The notes under the pieces are model-generated. The model was not told the origin of the DNA. It ran no database searches and saw only the letters and a program-made list of their open reading frames with translations. A stretch of 64,000 bases of DNA from Gammaproteobacteria bacterium (GTDB lineage Bacteria; Pseudomonadota; Gammaproteobacteria; JACKNK01). Made by a program: the position numbers and the translations under genes. Shown piece after piece: positions 53,075 through 64,000 of the stretch. Within the stretch, counting starts at the first letter, position 1. Each line of letters begins with the position of its first letter. The stretch lies in NCBI GenBank assembly GCA_024234895.1, contig JACKNJ010000002.1:395565-459564 (forward strand). Reading direction: 5' to 3'.

Positions 53075-54262
53075 TCAGTTGGCGTAATAGTTCAGCAGCG
53101 CCTCGAAGCCGGCATCGCCCTCAGTCTCGATGAGTTGCTCGAAGGCTTTGCCCATCTTGCGCCCCATCGGTCGCTCGCCGGCGCGGAAGGCGGCGATGCT
53201 GGCTTCCAGATACGGTCGCCATTGGCCGGCGAGGATGCCGGCGTCTTCCTCGACCGACAGGCCGCCATCGCCGTGGCACTTGTCGCAATAGCGTTTGTGC
53301 AGGCGGCGCCCGAGGTTGGCCTGTTCCCCGTCGGCCACCTGATCGGCCTCGTGATACGGCAGCTTGCTGAAATGGGCGGCGAGCGCGTCGATATCGGCTT
53401 CCGACAAGCCACCGAGCAGGCGCCCCATGATCGTGCTCGGCACCTTGCCGGAACGCATGTCCCGCATCACCTCGGCCAGATAGTCACGCGACAGACCGGC
53501 GATCGAGGGGGTGCCGGGCCCGGCGGATATGCCGTCGACGCCGTGGCAGGCGGTGCATTGCGCGGCGATCAGGAAGCTTCGATCCAGCGTAGCCGGGGCG
53601 GTCGGCAGGTTAAGCGGGAGGGCGACCGGCGTCGGTTGCAGGTTCAGGTCGGGTAGCTCGATCGGGCCGCGCGGTTCCGGCGCGGGAACCGGGTCGAGCG
53701 GCGCGCCGATGTTGTCGACGACCGGCTCCGCCGGCATCTTGTGCGCCAGCCCCTTGTGGCATTCGATGCAGGTCTGCCCGTCCTTTTCGGCCTGCGCGTG
53801 CTTGCGGGCGGCCAGCTCGTCCTGGCGGCTGGCATCCATCGAGCGGGCGTCGTGACAGGCGCGGCACTCGCGTGAATCGGTCGCGAGCATGCGCTCCCAG
53901 ACGCGCTCGGCAAGCTCGAAACGACGCGCCTCGAATTTGGCCTCGGTGTCGATATGGCCGTTGATCTCCGCCCAGACGTCGCGCGCGGCCATCAGCTTCG
54001 CCCACAGCAACGGTTTGGTCTCGCGTGGGACGTGGCAGTCCGCGCAGCCGGCGGTCACGCCGCTGGGGTTGTGCGCGTGACTGCTGTCGCGGGTCTCGGC
54101 CGCGACCCACTGCATCGAGTGGCAGGACTGACAGAACTCGTTCGAGTTGGTGTAGCGCAGACCGAAATCCAGTCCGATCACCAGGCCGGCGCCGATCAGG
54201 ATGAGAACCAGCGCGCCGAACACCCCGCGCTGACGCTCCGGTTCGAACGGGTCGCGTCGCAT
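53075..54262 (-). CDS. Hexaheme cytochrome c: NapC/NirT-type membrane tetraheme quinol dehydrogenase fused to a c4-like diheme domain
   Basis: 395 aa with an N-terminal TM. Four NapC/NirT-spaced CxxCH motifs are present (CQSCH, CADCH, CRACH, CIECHKGLAH). A Pro-rich linker follows, then two class I cytochrome c motifs (CTACHGVDG, CDKCHGDGG). Confidence 0.8.
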   Translation of the reverse strand: MRRDPFEPERQRGVFGALVLILIGAGLVIGLDFGLRYTNSNEFCQSCHSMQWVAAETRDSSHAHNPSGVTAGCADCHVPRETKPLLWAKLMAARDVWAEINGHIDTEAKFEARRFELAERVWERMLATDSRECRACHDARSMDASRQDELAARKHAQAEKDGQTCIECHKGLAHKMPAEPVVDNIGAPLDPVPAPEPRGPIELPDLNLQPTPVALPLNLPTAPATLDRSFLIAAQCTACHGVDGISAGPGTPSIAGLSRDYLAEVMRDMRSGKVPSTIMGRLLGGLSEADIDALAAHFSKLPYHEADQVADGEQANLGRRLHKRYCDKCHGDGGLSVEEDAGILAGQWRPYLEASIAAFRAGERPMGRKMGKAFEQLIETEGDAGFEALLNYYAN

Positions 54263-54531: not shown

Positions 54532-57279
54532 TCAGTGAGCTTCGTCCCAGTTCGCACCGCGCCCGACGTCGACCACCAGCGGCACATGCAGATCGGCGGC
54601 GCCCGCCATCAGCTTGCGGATCTGTTTCTCGGCGGCGTCCGCGAAGCCTGCATCGACCTCGAATACCAGCTCGTCGTGCACCTGCATGACCATGCGCACC
54701 GGCGGGGCCTTGTTCATGATCCAGTCGTCGACGCTGAGCATCGCCAGCTTGATGATGTCGGCAGCGGTGCCCTGCATCGGGGCGTTGATCGCGGCGCGCT
54801 CCGCGCCCTGGCGGCGCGGCACGTTGCTGGAGTTGATCTCCGGCAGGTACAGGCGGCGCCCGAACACGGTCTCGACATAACCCTGCTCGTGGGCCTGTGC
54901 CCTGGTTCGTTCCATGAAGATCTTCACGCCGGGATAGCGTTCGAAATAGAGGTCGACGTAGCCCTGCGCCTCCTTCGGCTCGATGCCGAGCTGGCGCGAC
55001 AGCCCGAACGCCGACATGCCGTAGATCAGGCCGAAGTTGATCGCCTTGGCGGCGCGACGCTCGTTGGAGGTGACCTCGTCAGGGGTGCGCCCGAACACCT
55101 CGGCGGCGGTCGCACGGTGGATGTCGGCCCCATGCGCGAAGGCGTCGAGCAGGCCCTTGTCGCCGGACAGGTGCGCCATGATGCGCAGCTCAATCTGCGA
55201 ATAGTCGGCGGCCATGACGATGTGTCCAGGCGGCGCGACGAAGGCCTGACGGATCCGGCGGCCCTCGTCGCTGCGCACCGGGATGTTCTGCAGGTTGGGG
55301 TCGGAGGAGGACAGCCGCCCGGTCGCGGCCACCGCCTGGTGATAAGACGTATGCACCCGACCGGTATCCGGGTTGACCTGTTCCGGCAGCTTGTCGGTGT
55401 AGGTCGACTTGAGCTTGGACAGGCCGCGCCAGTCGAGGATCAGGCGCGGGAGCGCGTGCTTCTCGGCCAGCTGTTCGAGCACGTCCTCGGCGGTCGACGG
55501 CTGACCCTTCGGGGTCTTCTTGATGACCTCGATGCCGAGCTTGCCGTAGAGCAACTCCTGCAACTGTTTGGGCGAACCGAGGTTGAACGGCTGGCCGGCG
55601 GCGTCGTGCGCCTCGCGTTCCAGTTCCAGGATGCGCTTGGCGATCTCGGTCGACTGACGCTTGAGCTGCGCGGTGTCGATCAGCACGCCGCCGCGCTCCA
55701 TGCGCTTGAGCACGTCGATCAGCGGCAGCTCGATGCTCTCGAACACGAAGCGGGTACCGTCGTGGGCGGCGACACGCGGCCACAGCGCCTGGTGCAGGCG
55801 CAACGTGATGTCGGCGTCCTCGGCCGCGTAGGGGCCGGCGTCGTCGATGGCGATGTCGTTGAAGCTGAGCTGCTTCGCGCCCTTGCCGGCGATGTCCTCG
55901 AAATGGATCGTGGTGCGGCCCAGGTATTTCTCGGCCAGTGAGTCCATGTCGTGCCGCGAGCCGGTGGAATCGGCCACGTAGGATTCCAGCATGGTGTCGT
56001 AAGCGATGCCGGCGAGGGTGATGCCGTGGTTGGCCAGCACCTCGGCGTCGTACTTCAGGTTCTGTCCGACCTTGAACTTCTTCGGGTCTTCGAGCAGCGG
56101 CTTGAGGCGCGCGAGCACGACCTGGCGGTCAAGCTGATCCGGCGCGCCGGGGTAATCGTGCGCCAGCGGCACATAGGCGGCCTTGCCGGGTTCGACCGCG
56201 AACGACACGCCGACGATGCGTGCCTGCATGTAGTCGAGGCTGGTGGTCTCGGTGTCGAAGGCAAACAGTTCGGCCTCTTCCAGGCGTTCCATCCAGCCGT
56301 GCAGCTGGTCGGCGGTCAGGACGATGTCGTATTCGGGTTCGGCGTCCGTGTTCGCGACCGATGCCGCCGTGGTCGTGGCGTCCGCAGCGGGCGCGCCTTC
56401 GACCTTGATTCCGCTGCCGTGATTGCCGGCCTCGACCTGCGCCAGCCAGGTGGTGAATTCGAAGCGCGCCAGCAATTCCTTGAGCCGGGCGGTGTCGGCG
56501 GGCGCGAGGTTCAACGCTTCCGGCTTGCGGTCGAGGGCGACGTCGCACTTGATCGTCACGAGCTCGCGCGCCAGCGGCAGCCATTCCAGGCTCTCGCGCA
56601 GGTACTCGCCGATCTTGCCCTTGAACTCGTCGGCGCGGGCCATGATCGCGTCCAGGCTGTCGTACTCGGCCAGCCATTTGACCGCCGTCTTGGGGCCGAC
56701 CTTGGGCACGCCGGGGATGTTGTCGACGCTGTCGCCGATCAGCGCCAGGTAATCGATGATGCGTTCCGGCGGCACGCCGAACTTGCCGATCACGCCGTCG
56801 CGGTCCATGCGCGTGTTGGTCATGGTGTTGATCAGCGTGACGTGCTCGTCGACCAGCTGCGCGATGTCCTTGTCGCCGGTCGAGATCAGCGTGTGCCGAC
56901 CTTCCGCCGAGGCCTGGCGGGCGAGGGTGCCGATCACGTCGTCCGCCTCGACACCGGGTTCCATGATCACCGGCAGGCCCATTGCCCGCACCAGCTCCAG
57001 CAGGGGCTCGATCTGCGCGGCCAGCTCCTGCGGCATCGGCGGGCGGTTGGCCTTGTACTGGTCGTACATCTCGTTGCGAAAGGTCGGCCCCTTGGCATCG
57101 AACACGAAGGCGATGTGTTCGGGCCGGTACTCGTCGAGCATGCGCCGCAGCATGTTGGCGACACCGAAGATCGCGCCGGTCGGTTCGCCGTGCGCGTTGG
57201 TCAGCGGCGGCAGCGCATGGAAGGCGCGGAACAGATAGCTGGCGCCATCGATGAGGATGAAGGGCTTGGAGGCGGACAT
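54532..57279 (-). CDS. polA: DNA polymerase I
   Basis: 915 aa with a 5'-3' exonuclease domain (ILIDGASYLFRAFHA), a 3'-5' exonuclease domain and pol motifs (DYSQIELRIMAH, QVHDELVFE). Confidence 0.97.
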   Translation of the reverse strand: MSASKPFILIDGASYLFRAFHALPPLTNAHGEPTGAIFGVANMLRRMLDEYRPEHIAFVFDAKGPTFRNEMYDQYKANRPPMPQELAAQIEPLLELVRAMGLPVIMEPGVEADDVIGTLARQASAEGRHTLISTGDKDIAQLVDEHVTLINTMTNTRMDRDGVIGKFGVPPERIIDYLALIGDSVDNIPGVPKVGPKTAVKWLAEYDSLDAIMARADEFKGKIGEYLRESLEWLPLARELVTIKCDVALDRKPEALNLAPADTARLKELLARFEFTTWLAQVEAGNHGSGIKVEGAPAADATTTAASVANTDAEPEYDIVLTADQLHGWMERLEEAELFAFDTETTSLDYMQARIVGVSFAVEPGKAAYVPLAHDYPGAPDQLDRQVVLARLKPLLEDPKKFKVGQNLKYDAEVLANHGITLAGIAYDTMLESYVADSTGSRHDMDSLAEKYLGRTTIHFEDIAGKGAKQLSFNDIAIDDAGPYAAEDADITLRLHQALWPRVAAHDGTRFVFESIELPLIDVLKRMERGGVLIDTAQLKRQSTEIAKRILELEREAHDAAGQPFNLGSPKQLQELLYGKLGIEVIKKTPKGQPSTAEDVLEQLAEKHALPRLILDWRGLSKLKSTYTDKLPEQVNPDTGRVHTSYHQAVAATGRLSSSDPNLQNIPVRSDEGRRIRQAFVAPPGHIVMAADYSQIELRIMAHLSGDKGLLDAFAHGADIHRATAAEVFGRTPDEVTSNERRAAKAINFGLIYGMSAFGLSRQLGIEPKEAQGYVDLYFERYPGVKIFMERTRAQAHEQGYVETVFGRRLYLPEINSSNVPRRQGAERAAINAPMQGTAADIIKLAMLSVDDWIMNKAPPVRMVMQVHDELVFEVDAGFADAAEKQIRKLMAGAADLHVPLVVDVGRGANWDEAH

Positions 57280-57393: not shown

Positions 57394-57774
57394 ATGCGCC
57401 GTCCCGCTCTCCTGATGACCGCCGCCCTGTTCGCGGCGACCGCTAACGCCCAGCCGCCATTTCCGGCGCCGCCCCCGCCACCGGCGATGCCGCAATTTGC
57501 GGAGCCCGAGGTGCCGCCGCCGGCGCCTGTCGACATCCCCGAGGAGGCGACGCAGATCGCGCCAGCGGACGTGCGCATCATCCAGACGCCGCAGGGGCCG
57601 GCCCGGATCGAGGAATACAGGAACAATGGGCGGGTTTACATGGTGCGGGTGACGCCCTCGTTCGGCCCGGCGTATTTCCTTGTCGATACCGACGGCGACG
57701 GGCGTCTCGATCAGCGCCGTACCGGCGGCGTCGAGGAAGTCATGCCGACCATGTGGAGGCTGTTCAGCTGGTAA
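57394..57774 (+). CDS. Secreted DUF2782-like protein
   Basis: 126 aa with a signal peptide (MRRPALLMTAALFAATANA), a Pro-rich segment, then ..NGRVYMVRVTPSFGPAYFLVDTDGDGRLD.. It is divergent from polA, as is commonly seen. It sits in the 3' part of a long spurious ORF (55951..57774). Confidence 0.65.
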   Translation: MRRPALLMTAALFAATANAQPPFPAPPPPPAMPQFAEPEVPPPAPVDIPEEATQIAPADVRIIQTPQGPARIEEYRNNGRVYMVRVTPSFGPAYFLVDTDGDGRLDQRRTGGVEEVMPTMWRLFSW

Positions 57775-57778
57775 GCGC

Positions 57779-60478
57779 TTAGCGTTGCATCAACATGGTG
57801 CCGACCACCTGTTCGGCATTGCTGCCGGTGGAGGCGCCAAAGCCGCTGATGGCGTATTCGGCATTGGTGCCGATGAGATCCACGGTGGCGTTGCCGACGA
57901 CGGTGCTGGTCGCGCAGCCGGTGCATGTGCCCGTCAATGCGACTTGCGCCATCGGCACGCTCGACAAGGCGATCGTGCTCGTGGCGGCGCTCTTGCTGAG
58001 ACTCCAGGACCGCCCGGTGGTGTTGGTGAAACCGACGTTGAGGTTGAACGCGGTCACGGTCATGCCGAGCAGATCGACGTTCATGCTCGCGGATACGCTG
58101 TTCGCGACATTGCCCTTTTCATCGGTCGGGCTGGTGCCGGCGATGCGGTTGAATGTCGCGAGGGACAAGGCCGGCGTTGAGGTTGAACGCTTGTCGGAAT
58201 AGATGAAATGCGCGTGGCCGGCGGAGCCGGTGCCGACGCCTGATATCTGCGCGTTCCAGCCGTCCTGCCAGCGACCCCAGTTGACGCCCACCGAGTTGCC
58301 GCCGGTATCCGTCAGGTCGGCGCGGGTGGATTCGAAAACCGTCCGGTTGGTTGCCGCGTTGAGGTTCTCGGTCGCCTCGACAACCACGTTGCCTATCGTG
58401 TTGACCGTGGCGATCTTGATCTGGTCGTTGGTGCCATCCTGCCTGAGCCCGTGGACCTCGCGCTTGTATCCCGCGCTGTCGGAGGTGACGAACGCCAGGT
58501 GCGCGACCGCGTTGGCGGCGGCGTTAACCTCGACTGTGCGGGTGCTCTTGGATTGCAGGATCGCGGCGCCGGTGAAGCCATGCTGGCTGTTGCTGTCGCG
58601 GACCGCGAAGCCGGCCCCCAGATAAGTGAGCGCGTCGTCGATGAACATGATGGAACCGTCGCCGGTCAGGGTGACGCTCGCCGCATTGCCGCCACAGCCA
58701 GTGCAGGTGCCGGTGAGCTCCGCGCTCCGGTCGCCCAGAACCTCGCTGAGATCCAGGTCGTTCTTCAGCTCGACCGTGTAGATGGCGTTGCCGAACTTGG
58801 CCTTGATTTCGTAGCCCACCAGCTTCTGGGTGGCGAAATTCACGCCGATGATGAAGTACTCGTATGAGCCGGTGTTGCCGTTCACGTCGGTCGGGGTGGT
58901 CGACGCGGCGTCGATGCGGTCGTAAATGACGATCGGTTCCGCGCGGGAACTGGCCCCGGAAATGGCCGATTGCGAGGCTTGAGAGCCGGCATAGACGTAG
59001 TGCAGGTCGGTGATCGGGTCGTTATTGACGCCGTCGGTGGTGACGGTGAAATCACCTGACCACCGGCCCCAGCTGGCGCCGCTCGCGCTGTGCAGGCCGC
59101 CTTCCACCAGGCTCGCGGTGCCGAACGAGAAGGTGTGGGTCTGGACGACGTTGCTTTCGTTCTTTCCCTGCGTGGTCGCCTGTTTGACCCGGACGTTTCC
59201 GGACGTGCCGGTGTCGAAATAGATCGAATGCGCGTCCGTGCCGTTGTCCCTGAGGATCGCCGTTATCAGCTCCCACTTGCTGCCGTCGTTGTCAATGAAG
59301 CCGATGACCGTACCCGCCCCGTTCGGAGCGCGGGTGAACGAGGACGCGATGACTTCCTTGTCGCTGAGCGCCTGGTTGGACGCGAACACGCTGGTCGTGC
59401 TCCCGGAAGTATCCGACGTGGTCAGGGTCAACACCGAATCCAGTGAGCCGGTCGGCGTCAGCGTCGACGGGAACGTCAATGGGGCATCGGCGCCGGTATC
59501 GGACCCCGCGCCCGTTCCCGTGTCGCCACCGGCATCGGTGCCTGTGCCCGCACCACCGCCATCGGCGGCAATGCCATCGCCGTTGGTACCCGTAGCGGCC
59601 GCGTCGCCCTCGCCAGCTTCGCTTGCTGCTGTGTCTTGCTGCGCTTCGCCGCCGGTCGTTTCGCCGCCGGTCTCCTCGGCAGCCTGTTCTTCGGCAGCCT
59701 GTTCTTCGGTCTGTTCGCCCTCGGCGGCCGGCGGCCCGTCGCCGCCTTCCTCGGTCTGTTCTTCCTCGCCGGTGGGCTGGTCTTCATCGAACACCACACC
59801 CGGCGGTTCTATGAGGCTTTCGGGTGGGGTCTGCGCGTTGGCGACGAAGAAGTAACGGTCGTTGCCGAAGGTCTGTTCACCGCCGGCGTTGCCGACGGCG
59901 ATTTCGCCATCCACGACGCCTCCATACAGGCCGGGCCGGAGATTCTCCCCGCCCTGCCGCTGGGATTCCGCCGCGAGTTCGGGCGTGACCTGGCGTACGC
60001 CGTAGTGGGTGCCGCGAATACCGATGGTCGCGACCGGCGTGGAGACCTGGTAGTTCTCCTTGTTCTTGTGTCCGATCGCGCCGGTGATGGTGCGGAACCC
60101 ACCCTTGATCAGCTTGAAGATGGCGCGCTCCGTGCCGTCCTCGGCGCCGTCGAAACGGTAGTCCTCGATGGTGAACTCGGTGTCCGGACGCAACGCCACC
60201 AGGGCGCCGTCCTTGAAGCGGATCTGCGCGAACACGTTGCCGCCGGTGATCAGCGTGTCGCCATTGAAGATCTCGGCCTGGCGGCGCAGCGGGCGGATGC
60301 TGCCATCGGCGGCGCGCGCCTCGATCTTGCCGGCGGCGACGATCAGTTTGCCGATCGGTTCGGCGGCCATGACCAGGGACGCGAACAGCAGACCGCACAG
60401 CACGAACAGGCCCATGAGCCAGCGCGTGCGACGCACCGGCAGGGTCGATGAGGCGGGATGTCCGTTGTTCATGGTCAT
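57779..60478 (-). CDS. Large exported FecR-domain protein with an acidic/Gly-Thr linker and a duplicated TbpB/fHbp-like C-terminal region
   Basis: 899 aa from ATG 60478, in an ATGA overlap with the cyclase stop. It has a signal/anchor sequence (..LFVLCGLLFASLVMA). The FecR-type domain spans about aa 43-165 (GKLIVAAGKIEARAADG...FNGDTLITG...IRFKDGALVALRPDTEFTI...VATIGIRGTHYGV). Low complexity runs over aa 230-335. Two homologous modules of about 250 aa cover aa 380-644 and 655-899. Confidence 0.8.
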   Translation of the reverse strand: MTMNNGHPASSTLPVRRTRWLMGLFVLCGLLFASLVMAAEPIGKLIVAAGKIEARAADGSIRPLRRQAEIFNGDTLITGGNVFAQIRFKDGALVALRPDTEFTIEDYRFDGAEDGTERAIFKLIKGGFRTITGAIGHKNKENYQVSTPVATIGIRGTHYGVRQVTPELAAESQRQGGENLRPGLYGGVVDGEIAVGNAGGEQTFGNDRYFFVANAQTPPESLIEPPGVVFDEDQPTGEEEQTEEGGDGPPAAEGEQTEEQAAEEQAAEETGGETTGGEAQQDTAASEAGEGDAAATGTNGDGIAADGGGAGTGTDAGGDTGTGAGSDTGADAPLTFPSTLTPTGSLDSVLTLTTSDTSGSTTSVFASNQALSDKEVIASSFTRAPNGAGTVIGFIDNDGSKWELITAILRDNGTDAHSIYFDTGTSGNVRVKQATTQGKNESNVVQTHTFSFGTASLVEGGLHSASGASWGRWSGDFTVTTDGVNNDPITDLHYVYAGSQASQSAISGASSRAEPIVIYDRIDAASTTPTDVNGNTGSYEYFIIGVNFATQKLVGYEIKAKFGNAIYTVELKNDLDLSEVLGDRSAELTGTCTGCGGNAASVTLTGDGSIMFIDDALTYLGAGFAVRDSNSQHGFTGAAILQSKSTRTVEVNAAANAVAHLAFVTSDSAGYKREVHGLRQDGTNDQIKIATVNTIGNVVVEATENLNAATNRTVFESTRADLTDTGGNSVGVNWGRWQDGWNAQISGVGTGSAGHAHFIYSDKRSTSTPALSLATFNRIAGTSPTDEKGNVANSVSASMNVDLLGMTVTAFNLNVGFTNTTGRSWSLSKSAATSTIALSSVPMAQVALTGTCTGCATSTVVGNATVDLIGTNAEYAISGFGASTGSNAEQVVGTMLMQR
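59681..59710. repeat. 15-bp tandem duplication inside the linker-coding region
   Basis: AGCCTGTTCTTCGGC followed by AGCCTGTTCTTCGGT. On the minus strand this encodes the repeated EEQAA units. Confidence 0.8.
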
Positions 60479-62697
60479 TTGCTCTTGTGCTCGTACACGG
60501 CGTCCCAGTCCGCCGGGAGGGGGTGTGCGCGCAGGTTGTCGATGCGTTCGCGGTAAATCTCGACGAGCCGGCTGGCCGGCAATCGGTCCATGTGATCGAG
60601 GGCCGCCTGCCAATCCCGGTGGCGATAGGCCGCCAGAGCCAGGTCCCATTCGGCGAGTTCGGCGGCGGCGTGCGCGTCGAACTCGCCGAGTGGCGCGAGC
60701 GGCTGGAATATCCCCACCGGCCGGGTCTTGCCCTTGACGCGGACCAGATCCAGCTCGCGATAGGCAAAGCCGTTGGCCGCGTCGCGGGTGTCGGCGCTGA
60801 CGATGATGCCGACCCCGTAGAACTTGGTCAGACCCTCCAGGCGGGAACCCAGGTTCACGGAGTCTCCAAGCACGGTGTATGCCATGCGGAACTGCGAGCC
60901 CATGTTGCCGACATTCATGGTGCCGGTGTTGACGCCAATGCCGATCGCCAGCGCCGGCCAGCCGCGCGCCTGGAATTCGCGATCGAGCTGGCTGACCCGG
61001 GCCTGCATCGCCAGGGCCGCGCCGACCGCCTGCGTGGCGTGCGCGGGGTTCTCCAGCGGCGCGCCCCAGAAGGCCATGATCGCGTCGCCCATGTACTTGT
61101 CGATGGTGCCGCGATACTCATGGATGACGCCGGTCAGCGGCGTCAGGAAGGCGTTCATCAGGGCGGTGAGTTCATCCGGGGCGAGGCGTTCGGACAGGGA
61201 TGTGAAATTGCGCACGTCGGAGAACAGCACGGTCATCTCGCGCGATTCGCCGCCGATGCCGAAATTGCCGCCACGCCCGTTCATCTCGTCGACGATCTCG
61301 GGCGGCACGTACTGGCCGAACATCCGCCCGAGGCGGCGCTTGTTGCGCGTCTCGAGCAGATAGCCGTAGCTGCTGTGGAACAGCAGAAGTGTCAACAGAA
61401 GTAACAGGTGTCCTGCCAACGGCAATACCAGATTGTGCCCGGACCAGGCATACAGATTGCCGCCGACCACGACGATCGCGAGCACGATCACCAGCGCGAT
61501 GCCGAACGCCGCGCCGAGCCACGGCAGGGCAAGGGACAGCAGCAGGCCGAGGACGAGCGCGATGACCAGCTCGTAGGCGACGGTCCAGCCGGGCCGGTGA
61601 AGGATGCTCTGCACTTCCGGGTCGGGCTGGATCGCATCCATCAGCCCGGCGAGCAGGTTCGCGTGCACCTCGACACCCGGATAGTTGGATTGCATCGGCG
61701 TGGTGCGCTGGTCGTAGAGGCCGGGGGCGGTGGTGCCGAGAATCACCACGACGTTGTCGAGCACCGCGCGCGGCGTGCGCCCGGCGAGCACGTCGGCGGC
61801 CGGCACGTAGCGGAACGCCGGGGTGCGGCCGCGATAAGGCACCAGTACGACACCCTGCTGATTGACCGGGATACGGACGTCGCCGACGCGGATGGCGTCC
61901 AGTTCCGGTGGCGATTCCTGACCGAGCTCGAAGCCGATTTCGGGGTCACCGAGCATTGCGCGCAGCACCGCGAGACTGAGCGTCGGATAGAGCGCGTCGG
62001 CGTGGCGGTAGACCAGGGAGACGCCGCGATAGACGCCGTCCGGGTCGAACGCGGGGTTGTCGAAGAAGCCGCCGCCGACCGCCGCCGCCTGCAACTCCAC
62101 GAGGTTGCCGGTCACGCCGTAACGTTCGAACAGGGGCAGACGGTCGATCGCGTCGGGCAGGGGTGCGAGCAGCGGCGGCGGCAGGGCGCCGTGCGTGCCT
62201 TCGCGCTGGGCGGCGGTGAAGCCGGTGACCACGAAACCGCGCGCGATCGCCTCGGCAAACAGGCGGTCATGTTCCAGCCGTGGCCGCAACGCGGCGTACG
62301 CGTCCTGAAAACCGGGTTGCTCGCCAAGCGGGCCGGCGGCGACCTGATCCAGGTCGGCGAGGATCGATTTCCCTTCGGCTTCCGCGAACACCATGTCCAT
62401 GCCGAGCACGTAGATCCGGTAATGCCCGAACAGCTGGTCGAGCAGCCGTGCCAGCACGTCGCGCGGCCACGGCCAGTGCCCGACTTCGGCGAGGCTCGCC
62501 TCGTCGAGATCGACGATCACGATGCGTTCGTCAACGCCACCGCGCAGTGTGGCGATGACCCTAAGGTCGTAAGTCCAGCGCTCGAACTGCTCGACGAAAC
62601 GGAGCGCGGGCAGCGCGCCGATCGCCTGCAAAGCGAAGATAGCGGTGATCGCCAGGCTGATCAGGACGCGGACGACTCGCTGGCGAGACATGATCAC
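60475..62697 (-). CDS. CHASE2 sensor-domain class III adenylate cyclase
   Basis: 740 aa. It has an N-terminal TM, a periplasmic CHASE2 domain with the hallmark GHWPWPRDVLARLLDQL, and about 3 TM segments (aa 370-445). The cyclase domain spans aa 487-665 and carries the metal Asp residues (FSD, GD), DKYMGD Lys, YTVLGD Thr and VNLGSR Asn/Arg. Confidence 0.88.
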   Translation of the reverse strand: MIMSRQRVVRVLISLAITAIFALQAIGALPALRFVEQFERWTYDLRVIATLRGGVDERIVIVDLDEASLAEVGHWPWPRDVLARLLDQLFGHYRIYVLGMDMVFAEAEGKSILADLDQVAAGPLGEQPGFQDAYAALRPRLEHDRLFAEAIARGFVVTGFTAAQREGTHGALPPPLLAPLPDAIDRLPLFERYGVTGNLVELQAAAVGGGFFDNPAFDPDGVYRGVSLVYRHADALYPTLSLAVLRAMLGDPEIGFELGQESPPELDAIRVGDVRIPVNQQGVVLVPYRGRTPAFRYVPAADVLAGRTPRAVLDNVVVILGTTAPGLYDQRTTPMQSNYPGVEVHANLLAGLMDAIQPDPEVQSILHRPGWTVAYELVIALVLGLLLSLALPWLGAAFGIALVIVLAIVVVGGNLYAWSGHNLVLPLAGHLLLLLTLLLFHSSYGYLLETRNKRRLGRMFGQYVPPEIVDEMNGRGGNFGIGGESREMTVLFSDVRNFTSLSERLAPDELTALMNAFLTPLTGVIHEYRGTIDKYMGDAIMAFWGAPLENPAHATQAVGAALAMQARVSQLDREFQARGWPALAIGIGVNTGTMNVGNMGSQFRMAYTVLGDSVNLGSRLEGLTKFYGVGIIVSADTRDAANGFAYRELDLVRVKGKTRPVGIFQPLAPLGEFDAHAAAELAEWDLALAAYRHRDWQAALDHMDRLPASRLVEIYRERIDNLRAHPLPADWDAVYEHKSK

Positions 62698-62882
62698 GGC
62701 AAGCCTTATGGAACCTTGGATCCACGCAGGCGCGGTTCATCGGGATGGGCGAAACGGCGGCTTCCGGGGCATGAACCCCGGACCTTGGCCGCTCCCCGGG
62801 CAGCTTGCCGCGCTACGGGCATCGGGAGGAAAGCCGTCATTGCTGGCGTCGGCTGAGCGGGCATGAACGGGCCGGAGTTTTC

Positions 62883-64000
62883 CTAGTACTCATAGCGGAG
62901 ATTCAGCGTGAACAGTTCGCGGTCGTACTTGTTGATGGCGAAATTGGAGTCGTTGGTGGTCGTCGACGCTTCCGCGGAGACGCTCCAGCGATCGTCCAGC
63001 AGGTGCTTGAGGATCAGGCCGAGGCTGCCGAAGTCGTCCTCGCGGCGTGCCAGGAACAGGCTGTTGACGCCCTGGTAGCGACTGTTCTGCCAGGCCAGGG
63101 TGGTGGTCAGGCTGGTCGATTCGCCCAGAGTCCATTGCAGACCGCCGCTCAGGCCCTTGATGTCGCGGTGGGCGATCGCGTCCGCCGAGGTGCCCTCCTC
63201 ATGCGGGGTTTCCTGCCCGAAGTAAACGCTGCCGAACGCGACCGGCTTGCCGGGCCAGTCCAGCGCGCGGATCAGGCCGATGCCGGCGTTGAACAGGTGC
63301 GAGTCCTGCACGTCGGCGCCAGGAAAGTGCTGGCTCGCGTAACTCATGAAGCCGGTGAGCTGGGTGCGCGCGTCGAGGGTATGGCGGGTATCCGCCGACA
63401 GGCTGCCGAGGGTGCGGTAGGTGGTGTGGTCCAGTTCGTAGTTCTGCGCCCGGAACGCGAAGGTGGTTTGCAGATCGCCGACGTTGTCGGTCAGCGAAAC
63501 GGTCATGGTCTGGGCGTCGGTGTCGAACCGGTCGTGCTCGTCGTTGCTGCGGTGGTGCACATCGAAGCTGGCGCCGACGTAGCGGCCGGGCGCGACCGGG
63601 ATGGTCAGCGATGCGCCGACATTCGCCTCGGTGTAGAAATCGCCCAGCTGGGTGGAGCCGCTGGACAGCGTGCCGGGGCCGAGCACCGGGGACACGAACT
63701 CCGGCGAAAACGGCGCGCTGTTGACGTTGCTGTCCCAGCCGCGATCCAGGTCGAAGGTCAGCCGCGCGGTCGATTGGTAGCGGCTTTCCTTGACCCGGAT
63801 GATGTTCAGGAAGCGCTGGATGTTCTCCTGGACCGAGACCGGCGGCGCGGCGGCCAGCACCGTCTCGAATTCGCGGCGCGCGCGATCGTATTGTTCGAGC
63901 AGGAAGTAGCCGCGCGCGAGTTCCAGGCGGGTGCGATGGTCGTCGGGGTTTTGCAGGAGCACGCGCTCCAGGGCGAACACGCCCTGGCTGTAGTGCCCCG
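62883..64000 (-). CDS. TPR plus C-terminal beta-barrel outer-membrane protein, Slam/DUF560-like (N-terminus outside window)
   Basis: The frame stays open to the window edge (..GHYSQGVFALERVLLQNPDDHRTRLELARGYFLLEQYDRARREFETVLAAAPPVSVQENIQRFLN). Amphipathic beta-strand-rich sequence follows, with DSNVN/DSNF motifs and a terminal ..FTLNLRYEY aromatic OMP signature. Confidence 0.6.
   Translation of the reverse strand, partial: GHYSQGVFALERVLLQNPDDHRTRLELARGYFLLEQYDRARREFETVLAAAPPVSVQENIQRFLNIIRVKESRYQSTARLTFDLDRGWDSNVNSAPFSPEFVSPVLGPGTLSSGSTQLGDFYTEANVGASLTIPVAPGRYVGASFDVHHRSNDEHDRFDTDAQTMTVSLTDNVGDLQTTFAFRAQNYELDHTTYRTLGSLSADTRHTLDARTQLTGFMSYASQHFPGADVQDSHLFNAGIGLIRALDWPGKPVAFGSVYFGQETPHEEGTSADAIAHRDIKGLSGGLQWTLGESTSLTTTLAWQNSRYQGVNSLFLARREDDFGSLGLILKHLLDDRWSVSAEASTTTNDSNFAINKYDRELFTLNLRYEY

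Follow-up and report, generated by a model that had tools for sequence, protein, structure and literature searches.

A divergent barrel protein, probably of the type XI secretion family, its cargo-like FecR partner and a CHASE2 adenylate cyclase: a candidate signalling locus in a gammaproteobacterium

We consider three neighbouring genes at one end of a stretch of 64,000 nucleotides from a gammaproteobacterial contig (JACKNJ010000002.1, positions 395,565 to 459,564), called the window in what follows. The genes lie on the minus strand, at positions 57779-64000, and encode, in order of transcription, an outer-membrane barrel protein with tetratricopeptide repeats (TPR), a class III cyclase with a CHASE2 sensor domain, and a protein that joins a FecR-type domain to two tandem C-terminal modules. 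Our reading of the locus, to which we give a probability of about one half, is that a divergent barrel of the type XI secretion system (T11SS) and its cognate cargo-like partner are wired, in this lineage, to the CHASE2 adenylate cyclase. The components of this reading do not all have the same strength: that the barrel and the FecR-module protein form a pair of the T11SS kind, outer-membrane protein and cargo-like partner, is quite probable; that a branch of the T11SS family was turned into a signalling device, the barrel holding its partner across the outer membrane and the FecR domain serving as the input of CHASE2, is a tentative proposal, against which we would sooner bet than for it.

What comparison brings out most clearly is the constancy of the pair: the two genes, for the barrel and for the FecR-module protein, are almost obligate partners in Gamma- and Betaproteobacteria. 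An alignment scan with the barrel, using one genome per species, yielded 286 relatives, and 80 loci of Gamma- and Betaproteobacteria were kept, among them those of the cultured Neptuniibacter pectenicola, Neptuniibacter marinus and Amphritea atlantica. Gene content was surveyed with hidden Markov models (HMMs) built from the locus's own sequences, and the 74 loci that have sequence downstream are informative: a FecR(+module) gene directly follows the barrel gene in 71 of them and, in one more, the window's relative, it follows with the cyclase gene in between, which gives 72 of 74. On a related contig the barrel protein is 74% identical to that of the window. Seen from the FecR side, the barrel gene was just upstream in all three look-ups. 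One locus (L086:5224-11019) contains a single SlipAM-type barrel gene and then two FecR-module paralogues, of 652 and 672 amino acids. Only two well-flanked loci, L008:6843-10180 and L011:6980-9257, have a barrel homologue and no FecR gene. Upstream in both lies a gene for a protein with a near-identical N-terminus, whose L008 copy has two stretches that bind cyclic nucleotide monophosphates (cNMP) according to Pfam; a trypsin-like protease gene is found downstream in L008.

The window holds the 3' 1118 nucleotides of the barrel gene (62883..64000, minus strand), coding for residues 69-439 of 439 and the stop codon. The open reading frame leaves the window at 64000, and its first 68 codons, with the signal peptide and the first TPR helices, are beyond that end. 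Positions 57779-64000 occur letter for letter in contig JACKLH010000017.1 (assembly GCA_024235975.1), called L001 below, on which the full gene of 439 codons is at L001:6271-7590. The protein comprises a signal peptide, TPR helices and a predicted barrel: its AlphaFold2 model, built with 50 sequences on a protein 99% identical to that of the window (P0121), has a mean predicted local distance difference test (pLDDT) of 91.7, with helices at residues 24-139 followed by 14 long strands at 145-438. In the window, the periplasmic TPR region, residues 69-139, is at 63786..63998, and the predicted 14-stranded outer-membrane barrel, residues 145-439, at 62886..63770, according to the model and to Foldseek. 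On the full protein, Pfam matches the TPR part only (TPR_19, TPR_9). The TPR region leads into a conserved connector, PPxxVxxxIxxFL..IR..E.RY; the element AAAPPVSVQENIQRFL after the TPR-like segment and the terminal LRYEY, both singled out in the original prediction, are present in the in-frame translation.

The family of this barrel emerges from its relatives. A database search returned about 200 full-length homologues, with identities of 30-82%; many of the homologues found (E 1e-60 to 1e-133) are recorded with PF04575, the SlipAM or DUF560 family, and NCBI calls some of them 'surface lipoprotein assembly modifier'. When 50 full-length homologues of 30-50% identity were scanned singly, 32 matched SlipAM at E<=1e-3, and the gathering score of PF04575 (22) was exceeded in all eight homologues tested, with 25-49 bits over profile positions ~4-288 of 288. 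The 14 strands of the model agree with the 14-stranded topology given for type XI secretion proteins, PgaA having 16 strands (PMC8406197). On the grounds of transitive homology, architecture and context, rather than of its own Pfam score, we assign the barrel to the SlipAM family as a divergent member. One protein of the representative library (P0322, 1239 amino acids) is a single open reading frame in which a SlipAM-like TPR-barrel, residues 24-412, runs into three modules with no FecR domain; the chain may be a natural fusion of barrel and cargo, or else an artefact of read-through or assembly.

The partner gene is at 57779..60478 (minus strand) and encodes 899 amino acids; public gene calls begin two codons later, at the next ATG, and give 897 (P0001). 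The protein, as read by eye, has a Sec signal peptide at residues 1-39, a hydrophobic segment followed by VMA/AEP, with no lipobox, and in homologues the cysteine is missing too. The FecR-type domain forms a conserved block at about residues 40-232 (59783..60361), within which Pfam matches FecR at residues 74-165 with E 9e-12. Its best NCBIfam matches are Lsa33 and LipL45, surface proteins of Leptospira, and these are weak, far under the cut-off. No anti-sigma domain or transmembrane helix was found in the protein, and the signal peptide alone precedes the FecR domain. An acidic low-complexity linker follows at residues 233-380 (59339..59782), rich in Gly, Thr, Ala and Glu, with a net charge of -31; its length is about 150 residues and not the 100 or so first stated. 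In 86 of 120 FecR-module homologues (P0016, P0018, P0032 and others) there is an additional N-terminal region of ~100-150 amino acids, missing from the window's protein, with a LysM-like motif, W.V..GDS.YSIAR ... VG..L.LP. We take the likeness to LysM as no more than a hint: a Pfam LysM entry exists for 3 of the 120, and none was found in the two that were tested.

The two modules occupy the rest of the protein, module 1 at residues 381-645 (58544..59338), with the motifs WGRW, HYVY, TPTD..GN and VNFATQKLVGYEI and a match to the module HMM at residues 437-645, and module 2 at residues 646-899 (57782..58543). They are a true tandem duplication, as first suggested (24% identity, E 2e-14), and VNFATQKLVGYEI and ISGFGASTGSNAEQVVGTM are both found in the protein. 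The consensus of the family reads GVNWGRW .. HyIYS .. GGT.PTD..GN .. VDF..q.i..Y .. C..C.G.AS..FVG..A.GaitSY .. G.a.l.R. The AlphaFold2 model of module 2, made with 77 sequences (pLDDT 92.6, predicted template modelling score 0.91), is all-beta and in two parts, nine strands forming an N-terminal sheet and then eight C-terminal strands, presumably closed into a barrel. A Foldseek search of the Protein Data Bank (PDB) with this model returned fHbp, HphA/hemophilin or TbpB (C-lobe) for every one of its top 50 matches (E 6.6e-6 to 1.4e-3, probability 0.97-1.0). In its predicted structure, module 2 thus clearly has the fold of fHbp, of the TbpB lobes and of hemophilin, that is, the known fold of Slam/T11SS cargo.

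The module family is large, and its members follow a single plan. A module-only profile, searched against 1.84 billion representative proteins, found 1,396 clusters (50% identity) when the limit is E<=1e-3 and 704 when it is E<=1e-10; the proteins contain one to eight modules and reach 2,808 amino acids. Among 117 newly retrieved top matches, nearly every complete protein consists of a signal peptide, a FecR domain and modules, and most of those that lack FecR look like fragments. This layout is shared by almost all of the top 120 homologues of the FecR protein, which have one to four modules and end with the last of these or soon after it. Averaged over pairs, identity is 57% for the FecR domain and 33% for the modules, in 90 homologues, and 52% for the TPR part and 31% for the barrel: judged by sequence, the best conserved parts are the presumed periplasmic ones, FecR and TPR, and the least conserved are the barrel and the modules.

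Between the two genes of the pair lies the cyclase gene, at 60475..62697 (minus strand), which encodes 740 amino acids from GTG 62697 or 738 from ATG 62691; an exact look-up returned no entry for either product. The gap between the barrel stop codon and this GTG measures 185 nucleotides, and at the other end the TGA of the cyclase overlaps the ATG that opens the 899-codon reading frame, in the ATGA at 60475-60478; both details, like the arrangement of three co-directional minus-strand genes, agree with the original prediction. The overlap suggests that cyclase and FecR protein are translationally coupled here. Pfam matches CHASE2 at residues 22-385 (E 8e-52; 61543..62634, which includes the expected motif GHWPWPR) and Guanylate_cyc at residues 486-659 (E 1e-19; 60721..61242). 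Since the CHASE2 domain is flanked by hydrophobic segments at residues 7-35 and 369-443, it is predicted to be periplasmic, between a first transmembrane segment and a three-helix bundle. The catalytic residues read from the sequence are D493 and D537 for the metal, K534 and D612 for the pair that specifies adenine, and N615 and R619. In class III cyclases, residues with these roles make up the set that specifies ATP; judged by these residues, the middle gene is that of a CHASE2 class III cyclase of the ATP type.

The cyclase is a frequent neighbour of the pair and not a constant one. Of 37 well-flanked loci, 12, about one third, have it at a distance of no more than 8 kb, in the orders barrel-cyclase-FecR, as here, barrel-FecR-x-cyclase and cyclase-barrel-FecR, and once on the opposite strand; it was not found at three further loci reached from the FecR side. 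On a rough estimate, uncomputed, this proximity is far above chance for a family with few copies per genome. The original prediction saw the three genes as one candidate module and named their co-conservation as a check: for the pair of barrel and FecR protein it is very strong, and the triad as such is not conserved. Other recurrent neighbours were considered as members of the system and set aside, as the representatives of ten clusters look by eye like housekeeping genes or spurious reading frames, consistent with synteny within the lineage.

Other genes around the locus are also concerned with cyclic nucleotides. Just beyond window position 64000 and divergent from the barrel gene, a four-gene set (L001:3106-6137, minus strand of L001) encodes a FeeM-like N-acyl amino acid synthase of the GNAT family fused to a cNMP-binding domain (399 amino acids), an S-adenosylmethionine-dependent methyltransferase, a cNMP-binding protein of 157 amino acids and a DUF2452 protein; the set is kept in a relative, L003, whose FecR protein is 58% identical. 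It is possible that its cNMP-binding proteins are local readers of the cyclic AMP (cAMP) made by the cyclase. The gene table of L001 lists no sigma-70 r2/r4, extracytoplasmic function (ECF) sigma factor or TonB-dependent receptor gene within 10 kb. In N. pectenicola (L052:7133-15840) the locus has a small extra FecR protein, a SlipAM barrel (33 bits) and the FecR-module protein, and then a class-II cAMP phosphodiesterase-like protein of the metallo-beta-lactamase (MBL) type, a CHASE2 cyclase and a GAF/HD protein. Judged by the HMM survey, the layout is the same in N. marinus (L053) and, minus the extra FecR protein, in L056, L070 and L077 (Amphritea). On a plasmid of Ensifer sp. PDNC004 (L085:1-9773), genes for a TPR protein of 104 amino acids, a FecR protein of 220 amino acids and NHLP-type bacteriocin export are divergent from a CHASE2 cyclase 37% identical to that of the window, and genes for an MBL hydrolase and a cNMP-binding protein lie close by.

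The pair is best compared with T11SS. Like Slam1/Slam2, NilB and HrpB, the barrel protein joins TPR to a predicted 14-stranded barrel, with homologues that pass SlipAM, and next door is encoded a Sec-dependent partner that has the fHbp/TbpB-lobe/hemophilin fold at its C-terminus. T11SS cargo is united by a C-terminal barrel domain, and its C-terminal part is the targeting domain (PMC12282271); the position of the module, at the extreme C-terminus throughout, is the same and supports a cargo role. The tandem modules recall the two lobes of TbpB, and one barrel may serve two paralogous partners. The differences are that the barrel of the window is below Pfam detection, that the partner is not a lipoprotein, that the modules are not recognised as TbpB_B_D by sequence, and that the N-terminal part of the partner is a conserved FecR domain, whereas it is a variable effector in known cargo. 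Moreover, no TonB-dependent receptor, metal or haem genes are nearby here, a CHASE2 cyclase is associated, and the hosts are free-living Gamma- and Betaproteobacteria. The T11SS literature examined mentions FecR only as an adjoining regulator of the FecI/FecR type, and CHASE2 and cyclases are absent from it.

The cyclase side has its own relatives. In Sinorhizobium meliloti, the outer-membrane protein NsrA is required for the response of CHASE2 cyclases to a plant signal, with cAMP as output (PMC13001267, PMC7529298). On pSymB (L084:2211-5870) an open reading frame of 1219 codons abuts a CHASE2 cyclase gene; it has a FecR domain at residues 85-179 (Pfam, E 2e-15) and TPR repeats ahead of a barrel. 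By size, position and the reported barrel at residues 600-1200 only, we take it to be NsrA, and the adjoining gene to be cyaK. The papers on the NsrA system that were read do not mention this FecR domain. The NsrA/CyaK/CyaD1/CyaD2/Clr system thus resembles ours in an outer-membrane barrel needed by a CHASE2 cyclase, in its cAMP output and in the domain set of FecR, TPR, barrel and CHASE2 cyclase. However, FecR, TPR and barrel are in one chain of 1219 amino acids in NsrA, which has no fHbp-like modules, and are split over two proteins here, so that the locus was not classed as an NsrA-type sensor; hhalign of the barrel profile with NsrA aligned just the TPR stretch, with a probability of 7.5%, and the barrels are not detectably homologous.

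FecR proteins stand beside CHASE2 sensors in other systems as well: in the BiofilmReg operon of Burkholderia (PMC5192318), in S. meliloti (PMC5498481), and in Campylobacterota, where a cluster of CHASE2-cyclase, phosphodiesterase, FecR and TPR genes has already been noted (PMC9239204). Those of Burkholderia and Campylobacterota share with our locus a FecR protein with a signal peptide beside a CHASE2 sensor and, in some clusters, a TPR protein and a cAMP phosphodiesterase. They differ in that their FecR proteins are short or LysM-bearing, with no C-terminal cargo modules, that their TPR proteins are not described as Slam-family barrels, and that the output may be a histidine kinase. The FecA-FecR-FecI system offers a likeness of another kind, a FecR-type domain being proposed here to link an outer-membrane protein to an inner-membrane partner; the anti-sigma domain, transmembrane helix, ECF sigma factor and TonB-dependent receptor are lacking, and the output would be cAMP. 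A FecR anti-sigma regulator was accordingly rejected: only a signal peptide precedes the FecR domain, and L001 has no sigma or TonB-receptor genes. A surface-to-cAMP relay is therefore less new than first proposed, NsrA/CyaK and the Campylobacterota cluster being precedents, but neither the link to T11SS nor cargo fused to FecR was found in the T11SS and CHASE2 literature examined.

If our reading of the locus is right, the barrel would recognise the C-terminal module or modules, much as a cargo's C-terminal barrel is recognised by Slam, and would place them in or beyond the outer membrane. The FecR domain would stay in the periplasm, tethered by the linker, where it would contact CHASE2 and perhaps also the TPR domain. 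What happens at the surface modules would thereby alter the synthesis of cAMP, whose readers would be the two cNMP-binding proteins with genes that diverge just upstream, one of the two being fused to the FeeM-like synthase. A periplasmic FecR domain that feeds into the CHASE2 cyclase is plausible because of the architecture of NsrA, the FecR-CHASE2 pairs found elsewhere, the pattern of conservation, the ATGA overlap and the cyclic-nucleotide genes.

A number of observations weigh against this reading, and several of them concern the barrel. In the window's own protein of 439 amino acids, no SlipAM/DUF560 match appears even at E<=5, and TPR_Slam stays below threshold (E 0.0015, 19 bits against a cut-off of 35). 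The Slam/DUF560-like barrel of the original prediction is thus carried by the homologues that pass PF04575 and by the model with TPR and 14 strands, and not by the protein's own profile match. Its best structural matches in the PDB are BcsC and generic porins: Foldseek lists OmpG and CymA, both with 14 strands (template modelling (TM) scores of 0.55-0.72 on target), BcsC, PelB and PgaA. No solved Slam structure was among these targets, and when the barrel profile was compared with the PDB sequences, TPR proteins alone matched and no Slam was found; structure therefore cannot decide the family of the barrel. The same matches, together with a weak NCBIfam match to the EpsL C-terminus on the window protein (E 2e-5, far under the cut-off) and BBP2_2 tail matches in 37 of the 50 homologues, speak for a generic porin or a polysaccharide exporter of the BcsC, PgaA, PelB or EpsL type, functionally unrelated to its neighbours. 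We hold this to be very improbable, as BBP2_2 covers only the last ~60 residues while the SlipAM matches in homologues are full-length and above the cut-off, the model has 14 strands and not the 16 quoted for PgaA, no glycosyltransferase or polysaccharide genes recur among the conserved neighbours, and the FecR-module gene adjoins the barrel gene in 72 of 74 loci.

The same must be said of the modules and of the cyclase. The TM-scores of module 2 in the Foldseek search are modest (0.32-0.45), with large root-mean-square deviations; such scores are to be expected if the angle between the two sub-domains differs. At the level of sequence, the module profile matched no chain in the PDB, no TbpB_B_D or lipoprotein C domain appears in the window's FecR protein at E<=1 (Pfam), and TbpB_B_D is weakly matched in 2 of 25 modules of the family (best E 0.006). 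Moreover, hhalign of the module profile with fHbp gave a probability of 0.1%, a weak negative, as the fHbp sequence used is approximate; in that alignment the fHbp stretch GIFGGKAQEVAGSA pairs with VDLIGTNAEYAISGF, and not with the stretch chosen earlier. The TbpB/fHbp-like lobes of the original prediction hold, consequently, as a fold, and the likeness of motifs to fHbp that it had proposed does not hold as sequence. No CHASE2 gene was found within 8 kb in about two thirds of the cassettes (25 of the 37 well-flanked), and the coupling of FecR to CHASE2 is therefore not the general role of the pair. Finally, a half-translocated T11SS cargo would have no precedent, known cargo crossing whole, and S. 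meliloti can perceive the signal without the FecR protein encoded beside cyaD1 (PMC5498481).

All T11SS cargo characterised so far passes completely through the outer membrane (PMC8406197, PMC12282271), and this leads to an alternative of ordinary secretion: the FecR-module protein would go to the cell surface, or be released, in its entirety and with its FecR domain, to act as an adhesin or to bind a ligand, and the cyclase would be a co-regulated gene or a mere neighbour, physically unconnected. We think it unlikely, at about the level of the next alternative. It would account for the lack of a nearby cyclase in most cassettes, for the resemblance, weak and far under cut-off, of the FecR domain to Lsa33 and LipL45, and for the barrel followed by two paralogues, which is like a Slam with several cargos. 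The pattern of conservation is nevertheless opposite to that of known cargo, the N-terminal domain being conserved and the modules varying in sequence and in copy number (1-8); FecR proteins beside CHASE2 sensors elsewhere are reported to be periplasmic (PMC5192318), and NsrA puts FecR ahead of the TPRs and the barrel. The cyclase is also strongly over-represented near the cassette and translationally coupled to the FecR gene here.

The other alternative, to which we give the same low credence, is a wholly periplasmic transducer: the barrel would be a surface sensor or entry port like FecA or NsrA, and the FecR-module protein would remain in the periplasm, where the modules would bind the barrel or a ligand and the FecR domain would bind CHASE2, with nothing secreted. 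The signalling logic of FecA and FecR is established, and conservation in the TPR domain is high. In the NsrA/CyaK system the barrel is believed to sense the signal through its loops (PMC7529298), and the clusters of Ensifer (L085) and Campylobacterota (PMC9239204) have short FecR and TPR proteins with no modules. Three observations argue in the other direction: the fold of the modules is that of proteins moved to the surface by Slam-type barrels, in the C-terminal position of targeting domains; the modules diversify in sequence and copy number, as exposed parts would; and the barrel is homologous to SlipAM and not detectably to the barrel of NsrA.

Base composition is uniform, at ~65% G+C, and a scan of 57400-64000 for promoters and terminators was uninformative, its counts being no higher than expected from shuffled sequence. 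A gene for a DUF2782 protein of 95 amino acids (57487-57774, plus strand; Pfam E 2e-23), also present in the relative L003, converges with the FecR gene, with only 4 nucleotides between the two stop codons. Further downstream of the cassette, at 53075-54262 and 54532-57279 (both minus strand), are two ordinary genes, one for a multihaem cytochrome of the NapC/NirT type whose C-terminal part is cytochrome c-like, the other for DNA polymerase I.

Characterised T11SS come only from bacteria associated with animals; none of the nine other sequence clusters, whose members are mainly water and soil organisms, includes a characterised protein (PMC8406197), and for one marine cluster the prediction of cargo was largely unsuccessful (PMC12282271). 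The module family, with its ~1,400 clusters and one to eight modules per protein, offers a cargo-like partner, at the level of fold, for an environmental branch of T11SS, and the signalling domain carried by this partner suggests a role of T11SS in signal transduction and not in nutrient capture. On the other side, CHASE2 is a widespread sensor domain for which no recognised signal is defined (PMC5192318), and the papers examined on NsrA and CyaK, to which the locus is linked, give no molecular mechanism; a recurrent FecR partner tied to an outer-membrane protein is a candidate input route for CHASE2. The system sits between T11SS and CHASE2 signalling of the NsrA type, and no link between the two was found in the literature examined. 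Cultured Neptuniibacter and Amphritea carry the same arrangement, which makes the hypothesis tractable. If it is true, a FecR domain, and not a small molecule, would be the physiological input of CHASE2, which would explain why this domain has no defined ligand, and the uncharacterised environmental DUF560 clusters would gain both a class of cargo and a role.

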